Of a stretch of 64,000 nucleotides of DNA, positions 9,791 through 52,488 are shown in pieces; the first letter of the stretch is position 1; every line of letters starts with the position of its first letter. Origin of the DNA: Harriotta raleighana (lineage: Eukaryota); the NCBI GenBank assembly GCA_050575255.1, contig JBNZDD010013721.1, forward strand, positions 6,268,548 through 6,332,547. The letters run 5' to 3'. The notes beneath the pieces are model-generated. The model made no database searches. It was not told the origin of the DNA and saw only the letters and a program-made list of their open reading frames with translations. The position numbers were made by a program, and so were the translations under genes.

Positions 9791-10173
9791 GGGAAGAGGT
9801 GAGTTTGTAGGGTTTAAAGCTAAAGGATATTGATGCTGTCAGTGCTGGAGGTGAAAAGTTGGGAACCAAGCAATGTCTCACAAACAGCCATGAAATTAAT
9901 CAGCAATTGTATTTGGAGGATTGTTGGCCATAACACCGGGAGAGAGAAACTTCCCTCTCTTTCAGTAGGCCCATGAAATCTTTCACATTCACCTGAATGG
10001 GAACTTGCTGACAGGAAATATAAATTTGTTCACAGAATTTGCCTCCACCATATCCCTTTGTAACCTATTCCTGATTTTTGTTAGTAAACAAATCAAGCTG
10101 AAAGGTTGAGTAAAATAATTGATTTTCCCCGTTTTTGGTCAGCGGAGTTTCTGATACATGCAGAAATACTTAC

Positions 10174-10861: not shown

Positions 10862-12002
10862 TTCTTCAATGTGGAATGCCTCGGCTATTTTTAACCACAG
10901 TGTTTTGTGTGACAGGTCAAATCTGACAGCTGGTATGGAAAGGCTGATATGACTCAAGTCATATCTAAAAAAGTCTGGTGCTTTAGTTCCGTGTGTCCTA
11001 GTGCCAGTCAGTGGAGCTGCCTCAAAGTGCAAAGAAAGTACATTGCTTTCCCAAGTCAGGCCTAAGTTAAATTTGGGTTATAACATAAATGTTTGCATTA
11101 CTATTAAGGTAAACATTTATTTATTGATAATTAATTATTACCCACACCTTTATGTGTTGCTTTTTTGTGCATACTATTAGAACCAACCAAAGTTACAACA
11201 CAGATCAAGACTATTTGGCAAAACCTTTCTTTGCTGACAATGATAATAATTATTAATAATTATTAACCAAATATACTGATTATTATTTATTGATAAAACA
11301 TACGTTTGTCTCGTTGATTTAGGTGTATTTAATGATGAAACAACAACAAAATTACACTTTTGAAGTCGGGAGGACGTCCCAAGAAAGCTAAGGAACAGCA
11401 TTTGTCAGAGGTCATTCATAAAGTCACTTAGCACATTGAGAAGAGCAGTAATATACTCTCTACAAAATGAATTTGGAAAATATGTAATACGGCAAAGACT
11501 GACTTTTTTTTATTAAACACCTGCAGCGTGAGAGGAAATCAATCTCAGCAGTTATAAAGTGATTTTCATTTGCTCATCAAACAAAAACAGTTAGACTGCT
11601 TTGTGTTTCCAGTTTGGAATTAACGCAAACGCTTTGCGTGTGTGTGGGTTGTGGGGGGCGGGGGGGATTCAGTGAACTATTGTCAAACTCAAACAAATAT
11701 TGAGTTGATGTTTTATTTCCTTGTTTCACGCTGATTTTTGGAGAATTCGACTCATCCCACGTACACATAGAAATTCCAGAGAAAAAATTGTTGGAATTGG
11801 AAAATGGGCACTCTCTCTCTGGAGGCAATACATTCCTACTTACCTTATTTCACCCCAAAGTATTAGGCGCAGATTGACAAGATCCGAGGCTGGGGGAGCT
11901 CACCTGGAAGTATTGGTTGGAGTTCGAGAGAGAAAAAACGCTAGCACAGCTTCAGAGTCAGTCAGACAGACAGTCAGTCAGTGAAGCGAGGTGGGGGGAT
12001 AT

Positions 12003-13034
12003 TTAATATTCACTGGACATTTCTGTGGAGGAATCATCCTGGGATTCACCATCGGAGTCCAGGCTGAAACACGACCCATCGTTGTGTTTCACGTAGGAAG
12101 CCGGTGGCCCCTCACAGAGAGAGACTTTAGCGAAGTCAGGACACGGGCTAGAAAAAAACTGGATGCGTTTTCCGCGTGTTTTCCCCCTCTGGGATGATGC
12201 TGTGCTACAGGTGTCTGACATGTCCAGGATGCTGGAGCTGAGGCAATCATCAGTGCTCAGTGGGCTTTCGTTGAAGCTGGAATTGAGATCTGTAGAGGAA
12301 ACGCAAGGGACTGGCTTCAGCAACTTCATGTCTGTTTGGGGGCATGTTTGTGGCTGGAGACAGTCTGGTGGTAGAGGGTAGGAGCGGAGTGACGGAGGAT
12401 AAAAGCGGAGTGGAGGAGGAGAGGAGCTGCGCGTTGGAGAAGTAGAGGGGCGGCGTGATGGAGTCGAGGAGCGGAGGAGTGATGGTGGAGAGGGGTCGCC
12501 TGCTGGAGAGAGGGAGTCTGCTGGAGGGAGGGAGTCTGCTGGAGGGAGGGAGTCTGCTGGAGGGAGGGAGTCTGCTGGAGGGCTGGGTGGTTTGGGAGGA
12601 TCCTTCGGAGCCGATTTGCTTTTGATTTTCAATATCCGATCCTTGGTGAATTTGAAGACCACTGAGCTGGCGCCCACCCCGGGAGGGAGATCAAACTCGT
12701 TAGAAAAACCACGGATGCTGAAGCTGGTCGCCCCGTTTAGACCTCTGCGCTGCACCAAGTGTTCCCCGAACACTTTCATTTTCCCGTCCTTGATCTTCAG
12801 AAACACCTCCTCCGGCTTCATGCATCCCAGCTGCAAACAGTAGGAAAACTTGCCCTTGCAAGTGGCCTGTGGGTTCTGGGGTGGATCTTGGAGAGGTGGG
12901 TTTGGCGTTGAGGTCTGCGGTGGGTCTTGAGGAGGGACTGCTTGTGTCTTTGGTGGCTTCCTTGGGGTAGGAGTCAGTGATTGGTCTTGCGTGGGAACCT
13001 GCGGTGGGTTTTGCATTCCTTTCTGCCTACCCAT
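12003..13034 (-). CDS. Array gene 1: ODF1/HSPB10-like alpha-crystallin-domain protein with Pro-rich N-arm and Pro/Ser-rich tail (343 aa from first ATG)
   Basis: ACD-like KFSYCLQLGCMKPEEVFLKIKDGKMKVFGEH..RGFSNEFDLPPGVGASSVVFKFTKDRILKIK; uninterrupted ORF; shared upstream module. Confidence 0.8.
   Translation of the reverse strand: MGRQKGMQNPPQVPTQDQSLTPTPRKPPKTQAVPPQDPPQTSTPNPPLQDPPQNPQATCKGKFSYCLQLGCMKPEEVFLKIKDGKMKVFGEHLVQRRGLNGATSFSIRGFSNEFDLPPGVGASSVVFKFTKDRILKIKSKSAPKDPPKPPSPPADSLPPADSLPPADSLPPADSLSPAGDPSPPSLLRSSTPSRRPSTSPTRSSSPPPLRFYPPSLRSYPLPPDCLQPQTCPQTDMKLLKPVPCVSSTDLNSSFNESPLSTDDCLSSSILDMSDTCSTASSQRGKTRGKRIQFFSSPCPDFAKVSLCEGPPASYVKHNDGSCFSLDSDGESQDDSSTEMSSEY
12501..12582 (-). repeat. 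18-nt coding tandem repeat (PPADSL)x4-5
   Basis: GGAGTCTGCTGGAGGGAG repeated. Confidence 0.9.
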
Positions 13035-15551: not shown

Positions 15552-16403
15552 TCAGAACAGTCGTGGGCAACAACAGAGCGGGAAATTTTCAAACGAGCCC
15601 TTGTTTTTTTTCTTCCTGACCCTTTTGGGGTCAGGTTTGCGTTTCCTGGGGGCAGGTTTCGGTCGGGTCCCACGTGTCTGGGCTGCGGGTTTCGAAGTGG
15701 CGTACTGGTCTCCAGTGGAGGTGTTGGACGACTTGCTTGTACCAGTGGATTCCGGTGGACTGGACGCGATGGATAATTTGCTTGTGTCAGTCGTGACAAG
15801 ACGCAGGGAGCAGGCGGAAGACTTTTTGGACTCGCTGGTTTCAGTCGGAGTGCAGCTGAGGGAACTCTTGGACTCAGAGCTGCAGTCCGAGCTGGACACG
15901 CGTCTCCTGCTCGGCTGTTTGCTCATGGACCTCCCTTCCGCGTGTAAATTGGATCTTCTGGGCGAAGGGCGCCTGAAATCCGAGGAACGATCGTCGGATT
16001 CGTAGTTCTTGGCTTTGAAGGGGGGTAACTTCAGTCTGGGGTCCGACGGCGGGGATCTTCTCGACACAGCACTCCGGGAGCGGCCACTTGGCTTGGACAG
16101 CTGCAGCTGCTGGACCTCAGCCGTCTTCGGCTCCGTCTTGCAGGTGGAGTAATCGGCTTCGATCAGCAGCGTGTGTTTCTCGCACACGGTCAGACTCACG
16201 GTTCTCGGGTCCACTTCCCGGGGAAGGCTGAAGGTGTTGGAGAAGCCGTGGTAATTGCGCCTGAGCATGCCATCCTCCTCCACCGTCATTTCAACCCGTT
16301 CGCCAGACACGTTCACTGTGTGGTCCTTGATGTTGCCTTTTATATTCTCTGGCAAAATATCCCCCAGGTTTATACGGACGGAAAACTTCGGGCGAGGCTT
16401 CAT
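15552..16403 (-). CDS. Array gene 2: alpha-crystallin-domain protein with Ser/Arg/Lys-rich tail ending CCCPRLF (start uncertain)
   Basis: KFSVRINLGDILPENIKGNIKDHTVNVSGERVE..DGMLRRNYHGFSNTFSLPREVDPRTVSLTVCEKHTLLIEA. Confidence 0.82.
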   Translation of the reverse strand: MKPRPKFSVRINLGDILPENIKGNIKDHTVNVSGERVEMTVEEDGMLRRNYHGFSNTFSLPREVDPRTVSLTVCEKHTLLIEADYSTCKTEPKTAEVQQLQLSKPSGRSRSAVSRRSPPSDPRLKLPPFKAKNYESDDRSSDFRRPSPRRSNLHAEGRSMSKQPSRRRVSSSDCSSESKSSLSCTPTETSESKKSSACSLRLVTTDTSKLSIASSPPESTGTSKSSNTSTGDQYATSKPAAQTRGTRPKPAPRKRKPDPKRVRKKKNKGSFENFPLCCCPRLF

Positions 16404-17979: not shown

Positions 17980-18582
17980 CTAGACTGACCCACAGCACAG
18001 AGGACAACACGGCTTTGGGGCTGGTGATACTGGCTGTAGTTTAACCCAACTGCTATTGGGTTCACAGGCCGCCAAAGGGCCAGGTTTGCGCCTGTTATCT
18101 CGGCTGTCGCCCTTTGACTTGGGACCACCTCCTCCTCCTTTCTTATTATCCCTCGAGTTCTGCGGCGACGAGTCTCTCGCTGATTTGCGAATCTCAATGG
18201 GATTTTTGTGAGTCCTCGGCGGCTCCTGAAACTGTGTCTTGGAGCCAGCGTTCTTCTTGTTGGGCATTCGTCCAGCTGAATATTTGTCCCCTTGGATGAG
18301 GATGGTGTCATCGTTGGGGACGGTCAGGATCAGGGAATCTGGATCCACGTCGTCGGGAAGGTTAAACTCGTTGGAGAAACCGTGAAAGTTGTAGCTGATC
18401 TCTCCATTCTTGGTCTTGATCTCATCCACGTGTTGGCCAAACACGTTGACCCGACTGTCCCGGACTGTGGCGTTCACTTTGTGTGGGGATTTCGAATTGC
18501 GCAAATTGACTGCGACATTGTACTTCGGTGGGTGGGCGAAGGAAGCAGAGTGTAGTTTCTCTCGAGACCTCGGTTTTGACAT
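17980..18582 (-). CDS. Array gene 3: alpha-crystallin-domain protein, 200 aa, basic tail ending CCPLCCGSV
   Basis: KYNVAVNLRNSKSPHKVNATVRDSRVNVFGQHVDE..SYNFHGFSNEFNLPDDVDPDSLILTVPNDDTILIQG. Confidence 0.85.
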   Translation of the reverse strand: MSKPRSREKLHSASFAHPPKYNVAVNLRNSKSPHKVNATVRDSRVNVFGQHVDEIKTKNGEISYNFHGFSNEFNLPDDVDPDSLILTVPNDDTILIQGDKYSAGRMPNKKNAGSKTQFQEPPRTHKNPIEIRKSARDSSPQNSRDNKKGGGGGPKSKGDSRDNRRKPGPLAACEPNSSWVKLQPVSPAPKPCCPLCCGSV

Positions 18583-23969: not shown

Positions 23970-26900
23970 TCAGTGTAACTCAGAGCAGCGGCACATCTTG
24001 GTATTTGATGACACAGGTGTTCTTTTCTTGTTGCAAATGCATTGCAGCAGAAAACGTCCCTGGGAGCAACCATTTTCCTCATTGTCAGTGTCACATTCCT
24101 CTGGCATAGATTCACTGGCTTCAAACTTCTCTTTTGCATGAGCTTCAGGATCTTGGTTGGAGGTTTTTAGAAAAGTCATTGGGCGTTTTGGTTTGGATAT
24201 GGGTATGGGTCTACACTTGCAATGTATTCTTTGTGGGATTTTTGGTCTCCCTCGGCAATGGACTTTTGTATGATTTTGGGAAGTAGTTTCAGGAAGATAT
24301 TGACTGTTTTGCCTGAGGGATTTCACAGCAACTTGCGCACCCCCAGCTAGGGTATTCGAGGTATGCTGCACACCTTCAGGGAGAGTTTTCATGAAATCTT
24401 GCTTGCTTTGACTATGTTGTTGCCTTACATTTTCTACATCTTGAGATTGGATCGGGAGCTGCGCATGTTGGGAAGGTAAATCTCCATTACCTCGTCTGCT
24501 GTGAGAAGTGGACTGTGGGGCATCTTCCCCAACTTCATAGGCAGTTCCCAAAGGTCCTTGGCTTTGTCTTCCAACTTTTCTGCCATATTCTGATTCATGC
24601 AATCGCATTTCTGGGACATTTTGTCCATTTTGGTTAAATGATTCCAGAGAACTTTGTCTGCTGTGGGGTTGAGAGACTGGGGCATAACCCCTGTTTACAT
24701 CTCTGTTTTCTAAGTGATTTTGGCTTTGTCTGCTGATTCTCCTACCATTTTCTTGAGCTTGAGGTTTCATTTCCAGGACACCTTGCACATCCTGAACTCG
24801 TCTGCTAACGGATCGAGACAGTAGGTCCTGATTCTTATAAACAGTTCGTATATCCAAAGGATGTTGATTTGGTCTGATGAGATTTCTGCTATGTTTTGAT
24901 CCTTGGGATTGCATTGCTTGGATATCTTGCAAATTTGGGATGTTCAATTGATGAGTACCTCGACTGTTGTGGGATAGAGAACTTAGGTCATATTCCCCAG
25001 CTACAGATTTTGGTTGTGGTGGATCTTGCCTTTTGAAATTCTTGCCAATTTCCTGCATTTCTTGGACACTTTGCCCATTTTGATCGTATACTTCCCGTCT
25101 GCTGGGAAATTGAGTTATGTGGGCACGATCCTCATAAACAATAAGTGTGTCCAAGGGATCTTGCCTTTGTCTGCTGAGATTTCTGCTGTTTTTTGGTACT
25201 GAAGGTTGCATTTCTCGCACATCTTGCTCAGGTTGGAAGTATGATTCCTGAGTATTTTGTCTGCTGTGTGGCAGATAAATTAGGTCATGTTCCCCAACTA
25301 TAGGTTTAGCTGGTATTAACACTTGGTTTTGACTGCTGTCGTTTCCACCATTTTCTGGAAACTGGGGATGTGTTCCTAGAATATTTTGGATGGGTATTTC
25401 CTCAGATTTTTGTTTACTGTGGGATTGATACACTAGAGCATATTTCTTACCCAAATTACTGGTTTGGGAAGGACCTTGGCTTTGTCTAAGTGCATTTAAA
25501 CCAGTTTGTGATGCTTCATGTTTGGATTCTGGAATACATTCCCAGTATTCGAAAGGAAATTCTTGGGAAACCCATCTGCTGGGGGGTTCAATTACAAAGT
25601 CATATTCCCAATCGATAGGACAGGATTCTGTGAAATCTTCTTTTAGTTCTTCGCCTTGCATCTTGACTTTTTTGCTGCTTTGTGGGGTTGGGGTTTCTGA
25701 TAGATCTTGCTGATATTGATTAGAAACTGCCTGAGAAACTCGCCTGCTTTGTGATGACGACTTTCTGGAGTGCTGTTTATCTTCTGTGTTAGTGTGTCCA
25801 GGATCTTGGCTTTTTCTGTGAGCTTTCCTTGCATTTTGTGAGACTTGGGATTGCGTTCCTGAAATAACTTTTGCAACTTTAGAAGCAGATTCCTGAGAAA
25901 CCCGTCTGCTTTGCGAAGAGGGCTTTCGGGCATAATGCTTATCTTCAGAGAACATTTGCACCAGATTTTGACTGTTTTGTTTTGGGATTTTACTATCGAG
26001 TGGAGTTTCTGCTTGAGTTTCTGGCAGATTCTGTCGATATTGCAAAGAACTTTCCTGGGAATTGTGTCGGCTTTGCAATTTCGGGCCATATTGCTTTTCT
26101 TCAAGATGATTATCTTGGCTGTTTGGCTTCTTGATTTCCCTGACATGCTGTGGAACAGGACATGGCAAACCTTCATCATCTTGTGAAGGGAAGGCTGTTT
26201 GAGAACAGGACTTTGTAGTATATTGTTTATGTTTAGAGTTGGATTTGGGGGGATCTTGGCCATCTTGGCTGATAACACTCTTGACATATTGTGGGGATTG
26301 GGAGTAAGCTTCTGGAGGATCTTGCTTGGATTGGGAGGGACCATGCATGGCAGTTTGTTTATCTTGAAAATCTCTCAGATGTGCTTTTAGCAGAACTTGA
26401 CAATTTTGGAGATGGAAGTTTCTGGCATGTTGTGGATCTTTGCTATCAAATGCTGAGTCATAGGAACACAGGAACAGAGGAATATTAGAAATTAAATATT
26501 GCCCATATTGGGTTATATATTCAGATGCACTTGGTTCAACCCGAGGATGGTATTCTGGATTAAGTTCCCTGTGTCTAGAGTGAGTTTCCAACTGATTTTG
26601 GCTGTGTCTGTTTCTAGAATGTTGTGGGATATGGCCGTGGGGTTCTGGGAAATCTTGGTCATATTTGGAATGATATTCCTGGGACCCTCGTGTGCTATGA
26701 GGATCAGACTTTTGAGCATATCGTTCATCATTAAATTGGTTCTTTAAGGCATCCTGGCTGTAGATTTTTCTGAAATTTTGTGGGTCTTGGGATTCTAAGT
26801 CATGGTGTTTATATCCATAATATAATTTCCGAGGAATTTGCCTGCTGTGGGGATGGACTCTTGAAGCATATTGTTTATTTTCAGAGTGAATTCCTATGAA

Positions 26901-29900
26901 ATCTTGGCTGTTTCTCTGAACATCTCCATATTGTGGGTCTTGGCTTTCTGGTAGATCATGCCCATCTTGAGTAGGTAATTCCTGGGAACTTTCATGTTTA
27001 TTTTTAGTCTTATTTTGGTTTTCCTCTGTGGAACGATTTGGAAGATAATTCTGTTGCTGGTGGATGGATGACAAGTTCTCGTCGTGCTCTTCAAAAGAGT
27101 TTGGCTCCATGTAAATAGGCAAGTCCTGATTTTCAGGCTCAGGACTACGTGGCAGGGATTCAATGTAAGGTTTTGAAATTTGGGATTCTTTTGGAGTCAA
27201 TTGAAGAGCAGATTTTGTGATCACATTAGCACTTTCAGATGGAGATTCTATGGGTCGAAGTTGTGTTGTTTCCTTACTTTCACTGGAGATGATATTCTTG
27301 GATAGTTTGTTTTGAGGTGAAGGACCATTCTTTTGTTTCTCATTAACCAGGCTTTCCTCTGAGGAAATATTTGAAATGTCTTGTGGTTTATTACTCTGCT
27401 GAAAGTTTTCATTGTATACCTCAAAGGGGGTTGGCTTCATGGAAATAGGCAGGTCTCGTTTTTCAGGTTCAGGGCTGCTTGGTGGGGACTGACTTTCAGA
27501 GCTTGAAATTGGGGATACTTCAGGACTGACTGGAAGAGATCTTTTGTGTAGGCCGTCATTCCCAATTGAAGATTTTGCAGATCCTGGTGTTTCACTGTCT
27601 TTCCTGTTCAAGATAGACTTGGAAAGTTTGGGCTCCTTTGGGAGGGATTGAATTTCCTTTTGTTTGTGGAGATCTGAGGTTTCCTCTGAAGAAAGATTTG
27701 GAATATTGCCTTGTTGCTCATCAGTTAGTGACAAGTTGTCAGTATGTTCTTCAGACAAACTTGGCTCCATGACAACTGGTAGGTTTTGAGGACCTTGGCC
27801 TTCCTCCAAAGTCATATTTGTTTCGTTGTTTTGTTGATCATTGAAGTTTTCATCATGTCCCTCAAAGGAACGTAACTCCATGGAAATAGGTAGGTCCTGG
27901 TTTGGGGGCTCATGGCTTCCTGGTGAGGATTCAGTACCATGGTTTAAAACTTGGGATACTTTAGGCATCAAGGAAAATGATTTTTTACCAATGCTATCAC
28001 TTTCTGTTGAGGATTTTGGAGGTTTGAATTGTGGTGTTTCTTTGTCTTTTCCGTTGAAGATATTCTTGGAACCTGTGGAGCTTTTTTGGAGAGAGGGAAT
28101 TTTCTTTTGCTCATCAAGTACTGGTTCTTCCTCTTCCTCTGATGAAAGATTTGGAACATTGTCTTGTTGCTCAATTTTGGGTTGCACGTTTTCAGCAGGT
28201 TCATCAAAAGTATTTGGTTCAATGGAATTAGACAATTCTTCGTTTGGAGGCTCAGGGTTTCCTGGTGAGGATTCAGTACCTTGGTTTAAAACTTGGAATA
28301 CTTGAGAAGTCAAGGAAGATGATTTAGTGCCAATGCTATCACTTTTTGTTGAAGATTTTGCAAGTGTTTCTTTGTTTTTCTTGTTGAAGAGTTTCTTAAC
28401 CAGTTTAGGTTTCTTTTGGGCTGAGTGGATTTTCTTTTGCTTGCTGAGATCTGAGCCTTTCTCTGAGGAAATACTTGAACGGTTGTTTTGGTCATCTTCA
28501 GCGAGTGGTAAGTTTTCATCATGTTTCATCAAAGAAATTGGCGCTATGGAAATAGGTTGGTCCTGTGTTTCAGGCTCTGGGATAAGTCTGTGTGATTCAG
28601 TGTCATGGTTTGAATCTTGGGAATCTTTACCAGTCAAGGGCTGAAGGATAGATCTCAGCTCTTCATTTTCAAGTGCAGATTTTGCAGATTTAACTTTTGT
28701 AGTTTCTTTGTCTTTCCCATTGAAGATATTCTTGGAACCTGTGGAACTTTTTTCGAGAGAGGAAGTTTTCTTTTGCTCGTTAAGTACTGGGTCTTCCTCT
28801 TCCTCTGATGAAAGATTTGGAGCATTATCTTGTTGCTCACTTTTGGGTTGTATGTTTTCAGCAGGTTCATCAAAAGTATTTGGTTCAATGGAATCATTCA
28901 GGTCCTTGTTTGGAGGCTCAGGGTTTCCTGGTGAGGATTCAGTACCATGGTTTATATCTTGGAATACTTGAGAAGTCAAGGAAGATGATTTAGTGGCAAT
29001 GCTATCACTTTTTGTTAAAGATTTTGCAGGTGTTTCTTTGCTTTTCTTGTTGAAGAGGTTCTTAACCAGTTTAGGTTTCTTTTGGGATGAGCGGATTTTC
29101 TTTTGCTTGCTGAGATCTGAGCCTTTTTCTGAGGAAATACTTGAACGGTTGTTTTGGTCATCTTCAGTAGGTGGTAAGTTTTCATCATGTTTCATCAATG
29201 AAATTGGCGTTACGGAAATAGGTTGGTCCTGTGTTTCATGCTCTGGGATAAGTCTGTGTGATTCGGTGTCATGGTTTGAATCTTGGGAATCTTTACCAGT
29301 CAAGGGCTGAAGTATAGATCTCAGCTCTTCATTTTCAAGTGAAGAGTTTGCAGATTTAACTTTTGCAGTTTCTTTGTCTTTCCCATTGAAGATATTCTTG
29401 GAACCCGTGGAGCTTTTTTGGATTGAGGGGATTTTCTTTTGCTCATCAAGTACTGGGCCTTCCTCTTCCTCTGATGAAAGATTAGGAACATTGCCTTGTT
29501 GCTCGCTTTTTGGTTCCATGTTTTCAGCAGGTTCCTCAAAAGCATTTGGTTCCATGGAATCAGGAAGGTCCTGGTTTGGGGGCTCGGGGCTTCCTGGTGA
29601 GGATTCAGTACCATGGTTTAAAACTTGGAATACGTTAGAAGTCAGGTAAGATGATTGTGTGCCAATGCTATCTTTCTCTGTTGAAGATTTTGCTGGTTTT
29701 AATTGTGTTTGTTTGCTTGTCCTGTTGAAGAGGTTCTTAGCCAGTTTGGGTTTCTTTTGGGATGATGGAATTTTCTTTTGCCTGAGATCTGTGCCTTCCA
29801 CTGAAGAATTTTCCTGACTTGTTTGTTCCTTGACGGAAAAAAATTCGTCAGATTTCTTAGAAAATGTTATTGATTTATGGTTTTCTTTCTGAGGTTCATT

Positions 29901-30713
29901 TGGCAAATGAACAGCAGGAATTGGATCAAAGGTAGCTGGTATGCCTGTGAGGGATCCAGTGTTGGAGAAGCTCTTCGGTGCCATGGGATCAGGTTTTATG
30001 GGCTCATCTCTCTCAGGTGGAGAGTGTGAGGCATAATCATCATTCTCCTCAAGAAGTGGTATTGACACTTTACCTTCTTGTAGGTTAGTTGGTAAAGCAG
30101 AAACATGGCTTGGGTTTGAAGAAGGACTTGGAATTGTGCTTTGCAAGTCAGCTGTTTCTGGCTGGTCTTCAATGGCCCATTGGGAGGATAATTTTTGTTG
30201 GCTTTCAGTTGTCACTGGTTCATTTACTGAGGGTTTCTCCATAAGTGAATGCAAGTTGCTATTAGTAGCTTCAGGCAATTGGTATTGTTCCTGGTTGGTG
30301 GGAATAAAGTGTTCATTCATAGTAGGAGACACACCATGATCCATATCTGGTTGGATGGTCATATTGTTTATTTTTTGTTTGTCAGTTGTTACTGTGCTCA
30401 GGTGTTTATATCGAGTGGCAGTGACTAGAACAGTATGACTACTCGTAACAATAAGGTTCAGAGTATCTGGATCTGTGTCTTCAGGGAGATTGAATTTGCT
30501 GTAAAACCCATGAAAGACATTTCTAGTCATTCCATTTTCTTCCTGAAGATTTACTGATTGATCTCCAAAGACATTTACTCTTCTGCCATTGATTGTTGAA
30601 TTCACCTTATTCGCAGAAATATGTCCAAGATTTAAGCAGACAGAAAAATCTTGCAAGCTTATTTCATTGCTTCCTCTTTGCTTTGTAGTATCAAACAGAT
30701 TTTTTTGATCCAT
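23970..30713 (-). CDS. Array gene 4: giant (2247 aa) single-exon-CDS alpha-crystallin-domain protein with repetitive S/Q/E/K/P-rich tail and Cys-rich C-terminus
   Basis: N-terminal ACD DFSVCLNLGHISANKVNSTINGRRVNVFGDQ..NGMTRNVFHGFYSKFNLPEDTDPDTLNLIVTSSHTVLVTA; a 6.7-kb stop-free ORF in AT-rich DNA. Confidence 0.85.
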   Translation of the reverse strand: MDQKNLFDTTKQRGSNEISLQDFSVCLNLGHISANKVNSTINGRRVNVFGDQSVNLQEENGMTRNVFHGFYSKFNLPEDTDPDTLNLIVTSSHTVLVTATRYKHLSTVTTDKQKINNMTIQPDMDHGVSPTMNEHFIPTNQEQYQLPEATNSNLHSLMEKPSVNEPVTTESQQKLSSQWAIEDQPETADLQSTIPSPSSNPSHVSALPTNLQEGKVSIPLLEENDDYASHSPPERDEPIKPDPMAPKSFSNTGSLTGIPATFDPIPAVHLPNEPQKENHKSITFSKKSDEFFSVKEQTSQENSSVEGTDLRQKKIPSSQKKPKLAKNLFNRTSKQTQLKPAKSSTEKDSIGTQSSYLTSNVFQVLNHGTESSPGSPEPPNQDLPDSMEPNAFEEPAENMEPKSEQQGNVPNLSSEEEEGPVLDEQKKIPSIQKSSTGSKNIFNGKDKETAKVKSANSSLENEELRSILQPLTGKDSQDSNHDTESHRLIPEHETQDQPISVTPISLMKHDENLPPTEDDQNNRSSISSEKGSDLSKQKKIRSSQKKPKLVKNLFNKKSKETPAKSLTKSDSIATKSSSLTSQVFQDINHGTESSPGNPEPPNKDLNDSIEPNTFDEPAENIQPKSEQQDNAPNLSSEEEEDPVLNEQKKTSSLEKSSTGSKNIFNGKDKETTKVKSAKSALENEELRSILQPLTGKDSQDSNHDTESHRLIPEPETQDQPISIAPISLMKHDENLPLAEDDQNNRSSISSEKGSDLSKQKKIHSAQKKPKLVKKLFNKKNKETLAKSSTKSDSIGTKSSSLTSQVFQVLNQGTESSPGNPEPPNEELSNSIEPNTFDEPAENVQPKIEQQDNVPNLSSEEEEEPVLDEQKKIPSLQKSSTGSKNIFNGKDKETPQFKPPKSSTESDSIGKKSFSLMPKVSQVLNHGTESSPGSHEPPNQDLPISMELRSFEGHDENFNDQQNNETNMTLEEGQGPQNLPVVMEPSLSEEHTDNLSLTDEQQGNIPNLSSEETSDLHKQKEIQSLPKEPKLSKSILNRKDSETPGSAKSSIGNDGLHKRSLPVSPEVSPISSSESQSPPSSPEPEKRDLPISMKPTPFEVYNENFQQSNKPQDISNISSEESLVNEKQKNGPSPQNKLSKNIISSESKETTQLRPIESPSESANVITKSALQLTPKESQISKPYIESLPRSPEPENQDLPIYMEPNSFEEHDENLSSIHQQQNYLPNRSTEENQNKTKNKHESSQELPTQDGHDLPESQDPQYGDVQRNSQDFIGIHSENKQYASRVHPHSRQIPRKLYYGYKHHDLESQDPQNFRKIYSQDALKNQFNDERYAQKSDPHSTRGSQEYHSKYDQDFPEPHGHIPQHSRNRHSQNQLETHSRHRELNPEYHPRVEPSASEYITQYGQYLISNIPLFLCSYDSAFDSKDPQHARNFHLQNCQVLLKAHLRDFQDKQTAMHGPSQSKQDPPEAYSQSPQYVKSVISQDGQDPPKSNSKHKQYTTKSCSQTAFPSQDDEGLPCPVPQHVREIKKPNSQDNHLEEKQYGPKLQSRHNSQESSLQYRQNLPETQAETPLDSKIPKQNSQNLVQMFSEDKHYARKPSSQSRRVSQESASKVAKVISGTQSQVSQNARKAHRKSQDPGHTNTEDKQHSRKSSSQSRRVSQAVSNQYQQDLSETPTPQSSKKVKMQGEELKEDFTESCPIDWEYDFVIEPPSRWVSQEFPFEYWECIPESKHEASQTGLNALRQSQGPSQTSNLGKKYALVYQSHSKQKSEEIPIQNILGTHPQFPENGGNDSSQNQVLIPAKPIVGEHDLIYLPHSRQNTQESYFQPEQDVREMQPSVPKNSRNLSRQRQDPLDTLIVYEDRAHITQFPSRREVYDQNGQSVQEMQEIGKNFKRQDPPQPKSVAGEYDLSSLSHNSRGTHQLNIPNLQDIQAMQSQGSKHSRNLIRPNQHPLDIRTVYKNQDLLSRSVSRRVQDVQGVLEMKPQAQENGRRISRQSQNHLENRDVNRGYAPVSQPHSRQSSLESFNQNGQNVPEMRLHESEYGRKVGRQSQGPLGTAYEVGEDAPQSTSHSRRGNGDLPSQHAQLPIQSQDVENVRQQHSQSKQDFMKTLPEGVQHTSNTLAGGAQVAVKSLRQNSQYLPETTSQNHTKVHCRGRPKIPQRIHCKCRPIPISKPKRPMTFLKTSNQDPEAHAKEKFEASESMPEECDTDNEENGCSQGRFLLQCICNKKRTPVSSNTKMCRCSELH
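27880..29790 (-). repeat. 666-nt (222-aa) coding tandem repeat, built from two ~111-aa subunits, inside gene 4
   Basis: The anchor CCTGGTGAGGATTCAGTACC recurs at 29593, 28927, 28261 (666-nt spacing) and 27919 (342 nt). Confidence 0.9.
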
Positions 30714-30812: not shown

Positions 30813-32883
30813 GAAATTATTTACTGCTAAGATTAAATTATGTTGTAAAGCTGATGTCTTATAGTTCCAAAGCATTATTTATTTACCGATCCCATAATAT
30901 AAGTAGCCACTCAAGGTTTAAAAAGAGCACATGTTAAAGAAATGTTGTAATTCAAAACAATTACTGCACCTTATATTTGTTCCATGTTATGGCACTAACA
31001 TTCATTACATTAATGAGCAAAAAAATTATAATAATCTCCATAATTAAACATATGCTGTATATTGAAATGCATAGGATAAGAATTATTTTCTGCAATTAGA
31101 TTCGCTGCATTAACTTTGCACCATTCCTATATTGAATTGAAGCAATCCTGTACTCAATTGTTCTAAACTACAACATGCACCATAAACTTTGCACCTTATA
31201 ACACTGTTTGCCAGATAATATATTTTTTAAAGTTACCCTTCTGTACAGTATAAATTTTAATAATAGTATTACCATAATCCCACTTTCCTCAGTTCATGTA
31301 GCATTTGTCATATATGTTGACTCAAAAAATAATGACTAACACTATTTATGGTTTACAGCTTATGTAAATTCTTGCGTTATCCGTTACTGATTAATTATTA
31401 GGAAAAACACCTCACCAATGAACCTGATAGCTGTCGTATAGATTTGCCAATCTGCTTTACCTCTCCATGCTTGTGTACATCCAACCGAGTAAAAGTTATA
31501 CTGTATTTACTACGATATCATAATGAAACAAATGATGTCACCTAGCAGTTTCCTCTCGTTTTCATGTCCTTCAAAAGCTGCAAAACATAAACTAAATTCA
31601 TAGCATAGAAGGGTGATATTGTGATCAGCAATCAAATTTGATAAATAATTTAATACATAAGGCTGAAAATAAAGTTTGTGTCTTCAGACAAACCAGGCGC
31701 CAGGCAGCTGTTGTGGACAGTAAGAGGAGGGAATTGTAATCTACCATTTGATCCAATCATGATTATCATCAATAATAACTAGTGATATTAATTACACTTG
31801 CCCTATCAAGTCAAAATGGCTCAAAGTGCTTTGTCCAAGAGATATTACAAATTAGTTGATATATAGGCAAGTCATGTGCCTGTGTAATGCACTTTGTGTC
31901 ATTTTCACTCAAAAAAACACACAGAAAAGAGATATATAAACCCAAGTAGGCCTTCCAGTTTATCACTCAATTTGATTGGGGGTGCACTGCATTGTGGGGC
32001 GATGTCATTTGGAAGAGATGTTAAACCAAAGTACTGTCTGCCTTTGAAGCCGGACATTAAAGATCCCATGGCACTCTTCAAACTATTGAAAGGGAGAAGA
32101 GAGTTTTTCCTGGTATTCTGGTCAACAGTCCCCCAGATAAAAATTGGCCCTTCACTTCCTGGCTAATTGTGGGCCATTGCTGGGCACAAATCAGTTACCA
32201 CATTCGACTACAAGCTCTATGTCATTTCACAGCACAGACACTGCACTTTGCAGTAAATCCTGTGAAGTGCTTTGAGATGTGATAAGATCCCGTGTTAAAT
32301 GGAAAGATTGCTATTACAGGAGTTTTATATCCCTGTTGTAGAATAATTACGTTCACCAAAGATCAAAAATATAGTCTAAACGTCCACAAGTACTAAAGCT
32401 GAGGGGGGCCCACAATTTATTTGAAAAGTGGTATAAGTGAAAGATTGTGATTAGTACTTTGATCCAAGTAACATTATACATTTAAACTAACTGTACTTTA
32501 AAGTCTCATGTCTATCATAGGTATACACATCAAATCTGTATCAAATGCAAGGAATACTAATATTATTATTATTATTACTATTATTTGTAGGTTAAATCTT
32601 TAAACTATAAATAATATATTTTATATAATGTAACATGTATTTTTACATATAATATACTGATAATATATTTTCAAATAAATAATACATGTTCTACATCGAT
32701 TGCAAGAATTATTATTAATATTATCCTTATGGTTATTACAGGCAGGTTAAACCTTTGAGCAGGGAGGAAACAAAACACCGTTACTTTGTTGCTTAAAGTC
32801 ATTTTAAAGAGAGTTGGATTCGGTCCGGATTCTCTTGTGATATTTCACACAAAATAAAAAGCCAGTCACGTTTCAATGATACC

Positions 32884-32968
32884 ATCACTTTCATCACAGT
32901 GGCGAGGTCCGGCGTGGGCTGAAAGACCTGTGGCGTAAGCAAAGCCACCGGCGGCGGTTTCATATAAG
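32884..32968 (+). promoter_or_regulatory. Shared upstream module (gene 5 copy)
   Basis: TCACTTTCATCACAG..ACCTGTGGCGTAAGCAAA..TTTCATATAA. Confidence 0.55.
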
Positions 32969-33025
32969 GCTGGTCGCTTTCACAACGTTAATGAATCGGT
33001 GAATGTGGTTGCAAAGCCAAACCCG

Positions 33026-33541
33026 ATGGATCCCCTGGGTTCCCGACCACAACCGGATGGCAGGACCGGCCCCAGCGATCCCCCGAAGTTTTCCGTCTTC
33101 GTCAACCTGGGGAATGTTTCTCCCGAGCAGGTAGTGGTGAAGATCAAGGACAGAACAATGACCATCTCTGGGGAACATGTGGAGAAGGTGCGGGGCGCCG
33201 GCGGGGTGGCGAAATACAGTTTCCACGGCTTCTCCAACGAGTTTGACCTGCCCGCCGGCGTGGAGTTCGATTCCCTGGTCTTCACGGTCCTGGACCACGA
33301 CACGATGAAGATTGAAGTGGAGCAACCTCAACCCCGGGAGCAACGTTCAAACCCCGAAGTGCAGCCGGGCGCCTCCGTGCGTTTCACTCCCAAGTCATCG
33401 GTCTTTACCCCCGTGAGATGTTCCAGCCAGAGGAAGGTCCACTTGGCAGTCAAACGCCAGAGCCAGAAAGGCCACAGTCATCGACAAGACCAGCCTCATC
33501 GGACCAGGTCGATCTCCCCCAACCATGGCTCCAGGAATTGA
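33026..33541 (+). CDS. Array gene 5: shortest alpha-crystallin-domain member (171 aa from ATG)
   Basis: KFSVFVNLGNVSPEQVVVKIKDRTMTISGEHVEK..KYSFHGFSNEFDLPAGVEFDSLVFTVLDHDTMKIE. Confidence 0.88.
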   Translation: MDPLGSRPQPDGRTGPSDPPKFSVFVNLGNVSPEQVVVKIKDRTMTISGEHVEKVRGAGGVAKYSFHGFSNEFDLPAGVEFDSLVFTVLDHDTMKIEVEQPQPREQRSNPEVQPGASVRFTPKSSVFTPVRCSSQRKVHLAVKRQSQKGHSHRQDQPHRTRSISPNHGSRN

Positions 33542-37874: not shown

Positions 37875-38894
37875 ATGCCAAAGGGGTCAGGAGCGGATCC
37901 GAATAATTCCTCTCAAGAATCGGATATCGAGACCACTAAAGAAACAGGGCAGAAAACCTCCCAGGACGGGGAAGAGGAGCCCAGGGGTCTCGATGGACCC
38001 AGACCCAGGCTGGAAGTGTTCAGTGTGACCTTGAACGTGGGCGATGTGAAGGTGGATGAGATGACCGTCAAGGTGAAGGGCGGAAAGCTTTCGGTGTCCG
38101 GTCAACAATTGGAGAACCGGGCGAACGGTTTCTGCTTTCATAGCTTCACCGGTGAGTTCACGCTCCCCCCGGACTTGGACGAGGCCACGCTGATCGCCAC
38201 CTTGGCTCACGACCGGACCATGAGAATCGAAGGCTACCGAGCGGCGCATATCGATTCGAGTTCGCAGACGGACGAGGGCTCGGAGGCTCGAGCGGAGCAG
38301 GCGTCGAGGAAACGCGCGGCGCACACGCCCGGCCACAAGGTGCCGGATGCCAAACGGCAGCAGTTAACCGGCAGGAGAAGCAGCAGCCGCTTCACTAACC
38401 GGCCCGACCCCGTGGAGCGCACCAAACACATGGCCACCGAACACATCTGCTCCACCACAGTCACCATCCCCCAAAAGTGCAGGTCCAAAGTGAACTGCAG
38501 CATCAGGAGCACGATCTCCAAGACTTGCTTCTCACCCAACCCCAGGAAACCCAAAATAGACATGACTCTCGCTTTCCCCGTAAGCGAGGTCCAACCATTT
38601 ATCGACAGCTCCCGTCAACCCACCGTCAGCTCGTTACCCGACACCTGGCTTCAGAATAACATGAACGCTGATACCAACAACAACAACAACAACAACGCCC
38701 CCACCACGCCTGTTCCCTCAACCCTGGGCTTGAACATAACAGAGACTCCCGAGGTGATGAAATTTGAACCAGTAAACGTCGCGGGCAAGAGCTCCTGCAC
38801 AACAGTAACCTTCCACACCTTCAACCTTATCCCATCACCTTCAGAGACACACAGCAGCACTATCATTCCAATCTCTTCCACCCGTAAGAAATAA
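37875..38894 (+). CDS. Array gene 6: alpha-crystallin-domain protein, 339 aa, Ser/Thr-rich tail with poly-Asn
   Basis: VFSVTLNVGDVKVDEMTVKVKGGKLSVSGQQLENR..FHSFTGEFTLPPDLDEATLIATLAHDRTMRIEG. Confidence 0.85.
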   Translation: MPKGSGADPNNSSQESDIETTKETGQKTSQDGEEEPRGLDGPRPRLEVFSVTLNVGDVKVDEMTVKVKGGKLSVSGQQLENRANGFCFHSFTGEFTLPPDLDEATLIATLAHDRTMRIEGYRAAHIDSSSQTDEGSEARAEQASRKRAAHTPGHKVPDAKRQQLTGRRSSSRFTNRPDPVERTKHMATEHICSTTVTIPQKCRSKVNCSIRSTISKTCFSPNPRKPKIDMTLAFPVSEVQPFIDSSRQPTVSSLPDTWLQNNMNADTNNNNNNNAPTTPVPSTLGLNITETPEVMKFEPVNVAGKSSCTTVTFHTFNLIPSPSETHSSTIIPISSTRKK

Positions 38895-42306: not shown

Positions 42307-43998
42307 ATGCCTTTTGCTGACACTGTGATTCTCACCATATCAAGTGATCGGCCGGTGAACATCCGAAGGCGTCACCAGCCCACAACCAATGCTCCCCACC
42401 AGTGCATCACCATCCGCTGCCGCTCGCCCAACCTCAGGCTCCGGATCAGCGCCGAGTCTAAACCCCGGGCCCAAGTTGGGGAAAGTAAACCCATTCGGTC
42501 CTCCCGGAGTCGCGCCCCCACCAAGAGGTCCCGCACTTGTCCCAGATTGACCTCCGGGAAAGACACTCGCCGCCGTTCTCCGCCGGTGTCGGCCCGCCCC
42601 CCCCGCCAGCGACCCCTTCCCTCCAAATGCGCTCGAAGGAAACCCAATCGATCGCTTGCGCGTCCCAGGGCGGGCGGCAGCTCGGGCTGGAAGAAAGGCA
42701 GGCGCCTCCTGAAAACACCTGGAAAGCTGGGCCCTCCCCCCGACTTGCCTCCCCCCAAACGCAAGAAGCGTAGGTTGTCCAAGAGACGCGCCCGGCAGAG
42801 GCGAGTGCCGAGTCCCGATCCCACCCCCAGTGGGATGGCAATGCCGGGGCACGGTCTGTGCTATATAGCCACCACTCTGGGCAACCGTACCCCATCTCCA
42901 GCCAGCGCCTCTCAGCATTGCAACTGCCCAACTCCCCTCCGCCAACCGTTCGCGAACCCCAGGGTTCGGAAGCCGTTCCAACTCTCACCCGACTTGTCGG
43001 GAGAAACCTGCCGCGAACCCAAACGTGCCTCAATCCCTTTCATCCAATTGGCTTCCAGAAAATGCCAGGAGACCTTTAGGAACGTCATGGGGGCTTGGAA
43101 GAACCCCAGCCCCCCTCCCCCCAATCCCTCCTGCGATCTGGTCCTCGGGAAGTGCCTGGCCACTGGGAATCCTCAGCCAAACAAAATGCCCTGCGGGACC
43201 CCTCGCCCCGCCACCACCGAGAGAAGCGTCCAATGTAGCCACCCCTCTCCTCCGGGGAACGGCGGAAGATGGATCCCAGAGACCAGGGTGGAGGCCTGTA
43301 GTCAGACGGCGCCCCCCTCCTCACGTGGGCGTCTAACTCGGCCCAAGCGCAAGAGGGTTGCAGATCCCGTGGTCCACAACTACTGCCTCACCGGGACTCC
43401 CTCGGCCGCGTCTCCTCCACCCGTGGGTCCGGCCGGCAGCAAGAGCAACTGCGAATCCCCGTCAAGGTTCTGCCCCGAGAGGTCCGGCCGTCGGAGACTC
43501 TTCCCCAATCGGGAGAAACAGATCTGTCCAAAGTGCATGAAACCTACGTACAGGAGCATCCCGATTTACGTGGTGGAACCGTGCCTCGAGCCTCAGGATT
43601 TGGCTTCGGTCCCGCCTCTCAACTCACAGAATCAGACTAGCGGGAGACAGAACGAGCCGAAGCCTGGAGGATCTGACCTATCCACCATGACCCCACGATC
43701 AGTCTCGGAAATATTTTGCATCCCCCTGCAACCCTCTAAGACCGTCGCAAATTCCAGTGAAACTATGTGGTGGAGCTCGCCTCAGCCCAGTACCATCAGG
43801 TTTTGCAAATCTCCGGAGCCCAGTGCGGGGACCTTCTGCAGCCCGGCAGCCCCCAGCTCCATGACCTCGTGCGCCGTTTCTAAACCCAGTACATCCACCA
43901 TCTTCATCTCTCCGGAGATGTGCCCTTTCACTCCAAACCCCGCTGCGGAATCTCCCAACACATCGCCAGATAACTACCCCAAAACATGCCAAATCTAA
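42307..43998 (+). CDS. Array gene 7: Arg/Lys/Pro/Ser/Cys-rich protein (563 aa from first ATG) without an intact alpha-crystallin domain
   Basis: 1.7-kb stop-free ORF in the array, preceded by the shared module and followed by AATAAA at ~44340; basic tract PPPKRKKRRLSKRRARQRR. Confidence 0.65.
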   Translation: MPFADTVILTISSDRPVNIRRRHQPTTNAPHQCITIRCRSPNLRLRISAESKPRAQVGESKPIRSSRSRAPTKRSRTCPRLTSGKDTRRRSPPVSARPPRQRPLPSKCARRKPNRSLARPRAGGSSGWKKGRRLLKTPGKLGPPPDLPPPKRKKRRLSKRRARQRRVPSPDPTPSGMAMPGHGLCYIATTLGNRTPSPASASQHCNCPTPLRQPFANPRVRKPFQLSPDLSGETCREPKRASIPFIQLASRKCQETFRNVMGAWKNPSPPPPNPSCDLVLGKCLATGNPQPNKMPCGTPRPATTERSVQCSHPSPPGNGGRWIPETRVEACSQTAPPSSRGRLTRPKRKRVADPVVHNYCLTGTPSAASPPPVGPAGSKSNCESPSRFCPERSGRRRLFPNREKQICPKCMKPTYRSIPIYVVEPCLEPQDLASVPPLNSQNQTSGRQNEPKPGGSDLSTMTPRSVSEIFCIPLQPSKTVANSSETMWWSSPQPSTIRFCKSPEPSAGTFCSPAAPSSMTSCAVSKPSTSTIFISPEMCPFTPNPAAESPNTSPDNYPKTCQI

Positions 43999-46632: not shown

Positions 46633-48929
46633 ATGAATGATGATGATTCCAAGTTCTTGTTCGACGGGGATTACGACAATTGGATGGAAAACCTGACACT
46701 CCCATCCAAAGAGTCAAACAGCGGGAATGAGACGTACAGGGTCTGTTTGCACCTGGGAGACATTGGAGCGGAAAATGTCAACATGTCAGTGTTGGATAAC
46801 GTGGTAACTGTGGCGGGACATTTGTCGGAGATGAATGAGGACGAGGATGGAATGATCAGGGAAAGCTTCCACGGGTTTTCCAACGAATTCGGTCTCCCTA
46901 GCGGCGTGAATCCAGATACCCTGACAGCCAACGTGATGGACAACCAAACGCTGGAGATCGAAGCCAACTACTTCTCTGATCCTCTAGATGAGACGTTCAT
47001 CCCTGGAGCAATTTCCCAAACCGGTATGGACTCAGCAGTCCCACCTTCAACCCACAACGTAACATTCCAACCCTCGCCCAAGGGATGCAAAAGAAAATCA
47101 GGACCCTCCACAGCCAACACCAGTTGTGCACTCAGCCCCTGTGAACGTAGTGGCGTGGCTCAGTCAGCCCTGGGGACTTCAATGAACACATCCAGTTGTC
47201 CACTAAGTCCCTGTGAACGCAGTGCCTTGGCTAAGACAGCACTGGGGACTTCAATGAACACATCAAATTNTCCACAGCCAACACCAGTTGTGCACTCAGC
47301 CCCTGTGAACGTAGTGGCGTGGCTGAGTCAGCCCTGGGGACTTCAATGAACACATCCAGTTGTCCACTAAGTCCCTGTGAACGCAGTGCCTTGGCTAAGA
47401 CAGCACTGGGGACTTCAATGAACACATCAAATTGTCCACTCAGCCCCTGTGAACGCAGTGCTTTGGCTAAGACAGCCTTGGGGACTTCAATGAATACATC
47501 TAGTTGTCCACTAAGTCCCTGTGATCGCAGTAATGTGGCTCAGTCAGCCCTGGGGACTTCAATGAACACATCCAGTTGTCCATTAAGCCCCTGTGAACGC
47601 AGTGCATTGGCTAAATCAGCCTTGGGGACTTCAATGAACACATCAAGTTGTCAACTCAGCCCCTGTGAACGCAGTGCTTTGGCTAAGACAGCCTTGGGGA
47701 CTTCAATGAACACATCCAGTTGTCCACTAAGTCCCTGTGAACGCAATGCTTTGGCTAAGTCAGCAATGGGGACTTCAATGAACACATCAAGTTGTCCACT
47801 CAGCCCCTGTGAACGCAGTGCTTTGGCTAAGTCAGCCATGGGGACTTCAATGAACACATCAAGTTGTCCACTCAGCCCCTGTGAACGCAGTGCTTTGGCT
47901 AAGTCAGCCATGGGGACTTCAATGAACGCATCCAGCTGTCCACTCAGCATTTGTCAACGTCGACCTACAGCAAAGAAGTCTTCAATGAACACCAACACCT
48001 CTAGCTGCCCACTCAGTCCTCGGGGACGCAGTGCCGTTGCTCAACCCTGCAAACAAGGATGCCCAACGAACATGTGCACATGTCTTCATAGTCTCTGTCC
48101 CCGCGGCAGTGCACCAAAGGGGTCTTTAATGAACACCTCCAGCCGTCCTCGTAGTCCTTGTCCATGTACCAGTGCAGCAAAGAGGTCTTCAATGAACACC
48201 TCAAGTTGCCCAATCAGCCCCCGTCAGCGCAGTGCCATAGCCCAAGCACGCATCGAAGGACCCTCCGCCAATACCTGCACCTTAACCCGCAGGCCCTCTC
48301 TGCGAGGTTCACTGGCCAACCAAAGTGGCCTAGGAGGCCTTACAAACTGCCAAAGTAGTCTGGCAGCCCCTCAAAGCAGCCAAATGGGCCAGGGAGCCTT
48401 TCCAAACAGTCAAATGGGCCTGGGAGCCCTTCCAAGCAGCCAAATGGGCCTGGGAGCCCTTCCAAGCAGCCAAATGGGCCTGGGAGCCCTTCCAAGCAGC
48501 CAAAGTGGCCTGAGAAGCTCATTGCAGCAGTTCAACTCCTCATTGCCCCAGAGATCAAGAAGTGTCGCGGGATCTGCTTTTAACACCTCCGCCAACAATT
48601 CCCTTCCACTCGCTCAACTGGAAGAACAAGTCAACCAGACGCTCAACTTAAATGCCAACCCTTACACGAGGGACCAGCCAGATGGCCCCCTGAATCAGAC
48701 CATTGCGTCCTTGTTATCAGAGTCCGTTGATTCAACCCGATCCATGTTGAAACCTGGCACACGCTGCCATAGCCCTAACGCTGCTTGCCGACCTCTGGTC
48801 GACTACAAGGTACCTGGTACTCGTTGTGTCCCTGCACCTCGCAATCAAAATAGCTGCAGAGCAGGCAACCAAACGCGCTCTCAATCACACCATGGAAATA
48901 TTAGTGGGATGGACGCCCCTGTTAATTGA
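46633..48929 (+). CDS. Array gene 8: alpha-crystallin-domain protein with Cys-Pro tandem repeats (about 710 aa after removing an assembly overlap)
   Basis: ACD TYRVCLHLGDIGAENVNMSVLDNVVTVAGH..DGMIRESFHGFSNEFGLPSGVNPDTLTANVMDNQTLEIEA. The two listed ORFs join in frame (2133 nt) when 47107-47270, duplicated across the N at 47270, is removed. Confidence 0.82.
47118..47960 (+). repeat. 72-nt coding tandem repeat (NTSSCPLSPCERSALAKSALGTSM), about 9 true units
   Basis: GGGGACTTCAATGAACACATC recurs every 72 nt; degenerate units continue to ~48250. Confidence 0.92.
48372..48510 (+). repeat. 30-nt coding tandem repeat (SSQMGLGALP)x4
   Basis: CAAATGGGCCTGGGAGCCCTTCCAAGCAGC repeated. Confidence 0.9.
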
Positions 48930-51822: not shown

Positions 51823-52488
51823 ATGAACGAACATGGAGCATCACCCTACAAGTTTTACATCTGTTTAAACTTGGGGAACATTTCCCCGGAGAACGTGCAG
51901 GCTTATATCACGGACCGGATAGTGGATATTATTGGGAAAAGCGAGCAGGTGACGGAAGAGGCGGATGGGATGATCAGAAGGAACTACCATGGCTTTTCCA
52001 ACAAATTCGGTCTCCCACCAGGTGTGGACCCCAACACGTTGCTGCTCACGGTGCCGGATGGGAGGACCTTAATCATCGAAGCCGAATACATCAAATGCCA
52101 AGATCGCAGCTCAAACGCAGCGGATTCGAGGTGCCCTCGAATGGCATCCGACGCCTCCCATAGGTCTATACACCACTACCCCACACTGCCCGTCCCCATG
52201 CCACGCACAGTGTTCCACACCAGCTCTGCCTACGAACCCACCTCCACCGGTGAAAACTCGGGAGGTTTGGTCTCGTCCAGGGTCCCGACCCCTTTCCACC
52301 CGGTGCCCATGCCTCGACAGAGCGTGATACCCAATGTCTGGATGCCTCACGAGTCACCCATACGGTACCGGATCTCCTCCCAAATCCACCCCAGGACGAG
52401 GTCAAAGAGGAGGAGACACCATTCCTATCACGAAGGCATGGTGGCTGACAACATTTCCCACTTACAAAAGATGAACCAGACGTTTTAA
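51823..52488 (+). CDS. Array gene 9: alpha-crystallin-domain protein (221 aa from ATG), Pro/His/Arg-rich tail
   Basis: KFYICLNLGNISPENVQAYITDRIVDIIGKSEQ..DGMIRRNYHGFSNKFGLPPGVDPNTLLLTVPDGRTLIIEAEY. Confidence 0.88.
   Translation: MNEHGASPYKFYICLNLGNISPENVQAYITDRIVDIIGKSEQVTEEADGMIRRNYHGFSNKFGLPPGVDPNTLLLTVPDGRTLIIEAEYIKCQDRSSNAADSRCPRMASDASHRSIHHYPTLPVPMPRTVFHTSSAYEPTSTGENSGGLVSSRVPTPFHPVPMPRQSVIPNVWMPHESPIRYRISSQIHPRTRSKRRRHHSYHEGMVADNISHLQKMNQTF

Follow-up and report, generated by a model that had tools for sequence, protein, structure and literature searches.

An old chondrichthyan family of alpha-crystallin domain genes in Harriotta raleighana, a likely sister group of ODF1/HSPB10

The small heat-shock family of vertebrates has been put at about ten genes, with ODF1 as its lone testis member. 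A preliminary description of 64,000 nucleotides of the Harriotta raleighana genome (the window, i.e., the whole stretch of DNA that was analysed) saw in the domains encoded there a likeness to ODF1/HSPB10, and so raised the question of whether this chimaera carries an expanded set of sperm-tail structural proteins or another kind of small heat-shock protein.

Make-up of the cluster

The domain at 33083-33320 (approximately 33086-33322) is the alpha-crystallin domain (ACD) of g5, an open reading frame of 171 aa, and the motifs quoted in the preliminary description were found letter for letter in the translations of g5, g6 and g9 (its gene 10). The g5 ACD matched Pfam HSP20 with 36.6 bits (E 5e-9, cut-off 20.8); AlphaFold modelled residues 21-100 as six strands at pLDDT 93-97 and the remainder as low-confidence coil, and Foldseek with this model returned the metazoan ACDs of HSPB1, HSPB6 and crystallins as top matches. 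Pfam HSP20 was matched by 11 of the 13 cluster reading-frame pieces scanned between 12.0 and 63.8 kb, ten of them exceeding the cut-off and g4 falling below it (19.1). The cluster belongs to the small heat-shock protein (HSP20) superfamily, with ACDs of 80-90 aa. All 11 matches of a genome search with the g5 domain lay inside the window, and a profile of the 11 ACDs detected no twelfth copy in the window or in its 80 kb flanks. A word-index search with g5 alone gave no match, and the ESM Atlas returned generic HSP20 clusters only (<0.9).

The cluster consists of these 11 ACD genes, each a single open reading frame, together with one basic, Cys/Pro-rich gene devoid of an ACD (orfX). The ACD genes follow one plan, in which the ACD is preceded by a short N-terminus of 20-50 residues and followed by a tail whose length varies from ~70 to 2100 residues. 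The features are given below, with support values for the orthologues taken from a 69-row tree.

10139..11077, minus strand: NEURL2 coding exon, left neighbour, Pfam Neuralized, outside the cluster
12003..13034, minus strand: g1, 343 aa; ACD and Pro/Ser-rich tail; orthologue P0041 (Chiloscyllium), 100/98
15552..16403, minus strand: g2, 283 aa; ACD and basic Ser/Arg tail with a terminal triple-Cys motif conserved in sharks; orthologues in whale shark, catshark and Narcine, 95/83
17980..18582, minus strand: g3, 200 aa; ACD and basic tail with two terminal Cys-Cys pairs, also in Chiloscyllium; orthologue P0011, 100/99
23970..30713, minus strand: g4, 2247 aa; N-terminal ACD and very long acidic low-complexity tail; orthologue P0036 (Scyliorhinus torazame), 100/99
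32864..32996, plus strand: g5 upstream module, likely a promoter or 5′ leader; CRE-like octamer starting at 32931
33026..33541, plus strand: g5, 171 aa; 20-aa N-terminus, ACD and disordered basic tail; orthologues P0005 and P0018 (Chiloscyllium), 97/83
37875..38894, plus strand: g6, 339 aa; ACD loop shorter than in any other member, first to branch off; orthologues P0039 (Callorhinchus) and P0040 (S. torazame), 99/95
42307..43998, plus strand: orfX, 563 aa, without ACD; basic (net +64), 4.6% Cys, 16% Pro
46633..48929, plus strand: g7; ACD and Cys/Ser-rich 24-aa repeats; orthologues in skates and Heterodontus, 100/96
51823..52488, plus strand: g8, 221 aa; ACD and Pro/His/Arg tail; orthologue P0032 (S. 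torazame), 99/69
55350..58298, plus strand: g9, 982 aa; ACD and long Pro/Ser/Thr tail; orthologue P0004 (Callorhinchus) only, 100/99
61127..61771, minus strand: g10, 214 aa; ACD and conserved Trp/Pro/Cys C-terminal module; orthologue P0010 (Chiloscyllium), 97/90
63179..63793, minus strand: g11, 204 aa; ACD and g10-type C-terminal module; orthologues P0016 and P0171, 99/86

The net charge of the tails runs from +25 (g2) to -52 (g4), and the Cys content, a high value of which is typical of ODF1, is 0.6% in g5, 0.7-3.2% in most cluster proteins and 6.4% in the g7 tail. Terminal Cys clusters are conserved in g2, g3, g10 and g11, and in these genes and g7 the Cys clusters survive in sharks while other tail sequence drifts. 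Those ending g2 (15552-15580, minus strand) and g3 (17980-18020, minus strand), which are conserved in sharks where the remaining tail is not, could serve as sites of lipidation or cross-linking. A Trp/Pro/Cys/His module, likewise conserved in sharks, closes g10 (61127-61500) and g11 (63179-63500), both on the minus strand; it had no Pfam match, and AlphaFold gave pLDDT <50 for 7 sequences. Two copies of a related Pro-Gly-Thr-Arg-Cys motif close g7 (48700-48929, plus strand) and its orthologues. orfX shares 52% identity over 326 aa with part of a Callorhinchus model, and showed no significant match (E 0.08) to the basic Cys/Pro stretch that Chiloscyllium has in the corresponding place.

The reading frame of g7 is interrupted at an N (47270) within a 164-bp duplication, where the Callorhinchus model P0167 is continuous, and the break is probably an assembly join. 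Single N characters with near-identical duplicated flanks are also seen at 15443, 36831, 37380, 37495, 46359, 49163, 50040, 53366 and elsewhere, and are probably assembly overlaps; such joins duplicate the upstream module of g6 in addition to interrupting g7, and after the N at 45190 part of the g7 upstream module is repeated.

Distribution, age and affinity to ODF1

When a profile of the cluster was compared with 1.84 billion proteins, 150 matches were listed, at least 26 of which were judged cluster-type by inspection. Eighteen of these were looked up, and all 16 that carried a species name were chondrichthyan (Chiloscyllium, Callorhinchus, Rhincodon, two Scyliorhinus, Narcine, Heterodontus and skates). 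In the 69-row tree the cluster ACDs form one clade (95/93, 42 rows), within which ten of the eleven ACD genes have a shark or ray protein as their partner (bootstrap 95-100). Gene order matches between species wherever locus tags reveal it: in Chiloscyllium the tags 3383, 3381, 3379 and 3377 correspond to g1, g3, g5 and g7+g8, and 11803 and 11804 to g10 and g11, while in S. torazame 3310, 3307 and 3306 correspond to g6, g8 and g11. Since shark or ray orthologues exist for ten of the eleven ACDs, the expansion is older than the chimaera-elasmobranch split, which dates back ~400 million years. The public models of the orthologues are named hypothetical, misnamed as mucin-4-like, EF-hand domain 5-like or MYB120-like, or fused across neighbours (fused or misnamed models: P0001, P0167, P0007, P0008 and P0169). 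Public identifiers of orthologues include XP_038658964.1, chiPu_0003377-0003383, LOC129707384 and LOC103172940. A literature search by titles and the starts of abstracts, with subscription journals mostly outside its coverage, found no description of such a cluster. The subfamily is real and ancient, and apparently undescribed.

The affinity to ODF1 proposed in the preliminary description was followed with searches and trees in which the ODF1 side was made up of three frog proteins (KAM4689526.1, KAM8966829.1 and MEE6463393.1, two of them named ODF1 by their source) and the HSP30/HSPB9 side of HSP30 rows. The top single-domain matches outside the cluster were the frog proteins P0060 (74.3 bits) and P0086 (65.0 bits), both named outer dense fiber protein 1, followed by a shark HSP30 (63.8 bits) and a third related frog protein (61.7 bits); by summed score, multi-domain invertebrate proteins outranked frog ODF1. 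The reciprocal searches of this genome returned cluster genes first, as the top seven of ten matches for P0060 (HSP30 being eighth) and the top two of nine for P0086 (HSP30 being third). Both mean ACD identity and profile score were higher for ODF1 than for HSP30 in ten of the eleven cluster ACDs, g4 being equally close to the two. A word-index search with the frog ODF1 alignment returned only its three queries, and no chain named ODF1 was present among 47 PDB matches.

Six trees were calculated from 78-79 columns, with long stems on both the cluster and ODF1. The cluster joined frog ODF1 with 85/89 (69 rows), 96/96 (34 rows), 99/98 (34 rows realigned, LG+G4), 93/86 (35 rows) and 95/90 (67 rows), the reduced sets omitting many cluster rows; the support dropped to 42/0 in a 36-row set that included the long unnamed row P0137, and the 35- and 67-row trees were built without this row after that collapse. 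The pairing with frog ODF1 thus stands in five of the six trees and in the single-domain searches, whereas four of the five approximately unbiased (AU) tests reject no alternative. The sole rejection was that of a cluster+HSP30 grouping under LG+G4 (p 0.023, 34 rows realigned); under the mixture model the same grouping gave p 0.098 (34 rows), 0.060 (36 rows) and 0.21 (a set without P0137). A grouping of the cluster with the classic HSPBs gave p 0.098 (34 rows realigned). Because one tree collapsed and the AU tests were mostly non-significant, ODF1 is the favoured, yet unproven, sister; from these alignments, we consider it probable that the cluster is the sister group of ODF1/HSPB10.

A further argument of the preliminary description was the KYSY/F segment before the EF.LP motif, which had been thought to fit ODF1 better than alphaB-crystallin. 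HSP30 shares this loop, and a Gly at alignment column 44, which marks the longer loop, is present in 37 of 42 cluster rows, in all three ODF1 rows and in all seven HSP30 rows. Since the loop and its aromatic residues are common to HSP30, the segment separates the cluster from the crystallins only. Better markers of an ODF1 relationship, as read from the alignment, are two features that the cluster and ODF1 have both lost, the dimer arginine and the Asp-Gly turn. In the dimer-arginine column, which we take to be R120 of alphaB, Asn is found in 26 of 42 cluster rows and in 3 of 3 ODF1, and Arg in 5 of 7 HSP30 and 6 of 8 classic HSPBs. The turn Gly is found in 6 of 7 HSP30 and 8 of 8 classic HSPBs and is not among the common residues of the cluster or of ODF1. 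Leu at column 10 (34 of 42 cluster rows, 3 of 3 ODF1) and Val at column 19 (36 of 42, 3 of 3) are further common states, and column 78 also separates the cluster and ODF1 from HSP30. The pair R120-D109 mediates dimerisation (PMC8913478).

These results bear on the alternative that the cluster is a fast-evolving offshoot of the intronless HSP30/HSPB9 line that was independently recruited to the testis, its pairing with ODF1 being caused by long-branch attraction. HSP30/HSPB11 and the HSPB9 line are like the cluster in their single coding exon, their tandem tendency and their loop insertion with aromatic residues, which was seen in the HSP30 rows; the AU tests mostly do not reject such an origin, and HSPB9 is also testis-specific (PMC8913478). 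The cluster ACDs nevertheless fall outside the HSP30 branch in all six trees, a sister relation to it being left unrejected by three of the four AU tests, and ODF1 is favoured by five of the six trees, by both reciprocal searches and by several residue states that it has in common with the cluster and not with HSP30. HSP30 itself, unlike the cluster, retains the arginine and the turn glycine, has a V/I-P-I motif after the ACD and forms a branch of its own, and an ordinary HSP30 is separately present on another contig. An origin from the HSP30/HSPB9 line therefore appears quite improbable.

The classic HSPBs (HSPB1, 2, 3, 7, 8, alphaA and alphaB) have the same beta-sandwich fold but differ from the cluster in their low identity (16-25%), shorter loop, mostly intron-split ACD and separate loci in this genome. 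Other contigs carry genes that, by reading of their sequence, are HSP30-, HSPB1-, HSPB2-, HSPB3-, HSPB7-, HSPB8-, alphaA- and alphaB-like, and no HSPB6-like gene was recognised among at least 18 HSP20 matches of this genome. In the region C13563:1349000-1358200, a further HSPB1-like gene and an HSPB8-like gene are arranged tail to tail.

ODF1/HSPB10, with which the cluster ACDs share a mean identity of 22-33% besides the two lost features, is a single gene as opposed to eleven. The cluster proteins also differ from it in their short N-termini, in which the heptad is missing (a profile of the frog ODF1 N-terminal heptad segment found nothing below E 1 in the window or its flanks), and in their long, unlike C-terminal tails. 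The C-X-P repeat tail is missing as well, with 0-2 C-X-P per cluster protein and, likewise, 0-2 in frog ODF1. For mammalian ODF1, PMC8913478 describes an extended N-terminal region that contains a putative leucine zipper, together with a C-X-P tail.

Chromosomal setting and upstream module

The cluster sits between NEURL2 and SPATA25. The genes on its left encode Neuralized, acyl-CoA thioesterase and PX/TPR domains and are presumably NEURL2, ACOT8 and SNX21; a gene with the Pfam SPATA25 domain lies ~4 kb past the right end of the window and is followed by a radical-SAM gene. The order is thus ACOT8-NEURL2-cluster-SPATA25-radical SAM gene, whereas the human order, as we understand it, has ZSWIM genes between ACOT8 and SPATA25, with CTSA facing NEURL2. 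Mammalian ODF1 is presumably located between UBR5 and KLF10. With neither C-X-P tail nor heptad, and at a site other than UBR5-KLF10, the cluster genes would be sisters of ODF1 rather than plain ODF1.

The possibility that they are nonetheless the true ODF1 orthologue, separated from the usual ODF1 site by a move in either direction and afterwards amplified, with the function that is proposed below, was considered with the corresponding interval of this genome. No ACD was found between the KLF10-like gene and UBR5 (three profiles; 271 N in 70 kb), and the searches of this genome found no ODF1-like locus other than the cluster, as would be expected after relocation. Against it, a 14-3-3 beta-like gene and an adjacent PABP gene are present on the contig of the cluster at a distance of 4.7 Mb, while a 14-3-3 zeta-like/PABP pair is on a different contig. 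We read these pairs as markers of two paralogous segments of the human genome, 20q13 and 8q22, and ODF1 lies on the latter. A paralogue from genome duplication, followed by reciprocal loss, is therefore the simplest reading and needs no move; together with the missing frog ODF1 heptad, this makes relocation of the orthologue unlikely. The cluster is possibly a genome-duplication paralogue of ODF1, although the 8q-like contigs (zeta/PABP and UBR5-KLF10) are not joined in this assembly. As an observation of its own, the last exon of an STK3-like gene (SARAH domain) is present in three degenerate copies (C13561:498402, C13672:362170 and C13631:3370389), two of them with stops, besides two intact genes.

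A module of ~100-140 bases precedes ten ACD genes (g1-g8, g10 and g11) and is absent before g9. Leave-one-out profiles recovered eight of the ten modules at E 1.3e-4 or better, that of g4 at 0.083, and missed that of g8; these profiles had no match below E 0.2 in 370 kb of other DNA. With the full profile, a copy before orfX (41878-41964), outside the training set, was detected at E 3e-10. A 5′ intron was weighed as an explanation of the GT..AG in the module, but it would be only ~27-47 bases long and g5 and g6 lack the AG, so this reading was rejected. A CRE-like octamer precedes six of the 12 genes, as compared with 24 occurrences in 370 kb of background, in a pattern that was defined after inspection of the data and among module copies that have a common ancestry. 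CREM-tau drives post-meiotic genes through CRE-like sites.

In the 500 bp before each of the 12 genes no perfect three-unit heat-shock element was found; one-mismatch triplets numbered six, all isolated, where ~3.4 were expected, and g5 had none. The HSP30 gene of this genome, unlike the cluster, has a heat-shock-element array, with three overlapping triplets 158-168 bases before its start. HSPB1 of this genome likewise has no heat-shock element in 500 bp, so the absence of the element is a weak sign. The HSP30-like gene is intronless (C13467, ~297500-298200, minus strand), and its compact array lies before a TATA-like box.

A possible structural role in the male germ line

On balance we favour the reading, drawn from sequence comparison, that the cluster is one old chondrichthyan family, likely sister to ODF1/HSPB10, whose members would likely be structural proteins of elongating spermatids and sperm and not stress chaperones. 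Expression of the cluster genes in male germ cells is probable, and, given such expression, a place in a tail or neck structure would be rather probable too.

The ancestor may have been a single gene of the ODF1 type, probably the copy on the 20q13-like segment that arose in an early vertebrate genome duplication. Tandem amplification of this gene together with its promoter, before chimaeras and sharks split, would have given copies whose joint post-meiotic transcription could rely on the CRE-like element. In the proteins, each ACD would provide a beta-sandwich unit for assembly or docking, and the unlike disordered tails (basic, acidic or Cys-rich) would determine the location; through their conserved Cys clusters, the proteins could become disulphide cross-linked into insoluble structures such as the accessory columns, the midpiece or the head-tail junction. 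In composition alone, orfX and the g7 tail, which are basic, Cys/Pro-rich and of low complexity, resemble structural proteins of spermatids, among them SMCP of mammals and Mst(3)CGP of Drosophila.

A somatic speciality of cartilaginous fishes, in which the proteins would act as chaperones under high urea or form structures in the cells of the lens, skin, electroreceptors or shell gland, would agree with the purely chondrichthyan origin of the 16 named relatives that were looked up and with the intact ACD fold. We regard it as quite unlikely, as the lost dimer arginine, the very short N-termini and the tails of up to 2100 aa are unlike holdase HSPBs, the nearest named relative and the right-hand neighbour are testis genes, and the co-regulated basic Cys/Pro gene without an ACD would fit spermatid proteins.

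As to the structure that the germ-cell proteins would build, elasmobranch flagella have two accessory columns (PMC11856307), and certain chimaeras show the loss or reduction of one of the longitudinal columns (PMC11276731, section 2.4). This loss or reduction counts against a role in the columns, as the cluster is complete here, yet the eleven unlike tails suggest several structures rather than columns alone. More tentatively, a duplication sister of ODF1 could have become an eleven-gene co-regulated kit next to SPATA25 that builds the accessory columns and other hard sperm parts of sharks, rays and chimaeras, the ODF1 type being as old as jawed vertebrates.

This cartilaginous fish adds eleven further ancient, separately conserved members to the small heat-shock family. 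If the kit just described is real, these would be the first molecular components of the chondrichthyan accessory columns, and the ACD would have found a new use as a plug-in assembly module, joined to tails of 70 to 2100 residues. Should the genes encode spermatid proteins, the ODF1 type would date back to the base of the jawed vertebrates, the accessory columns would have named candidate components, and it would become testable whether these columns are homologous to the axial fibres of amphibians and to tail structures of mammals.
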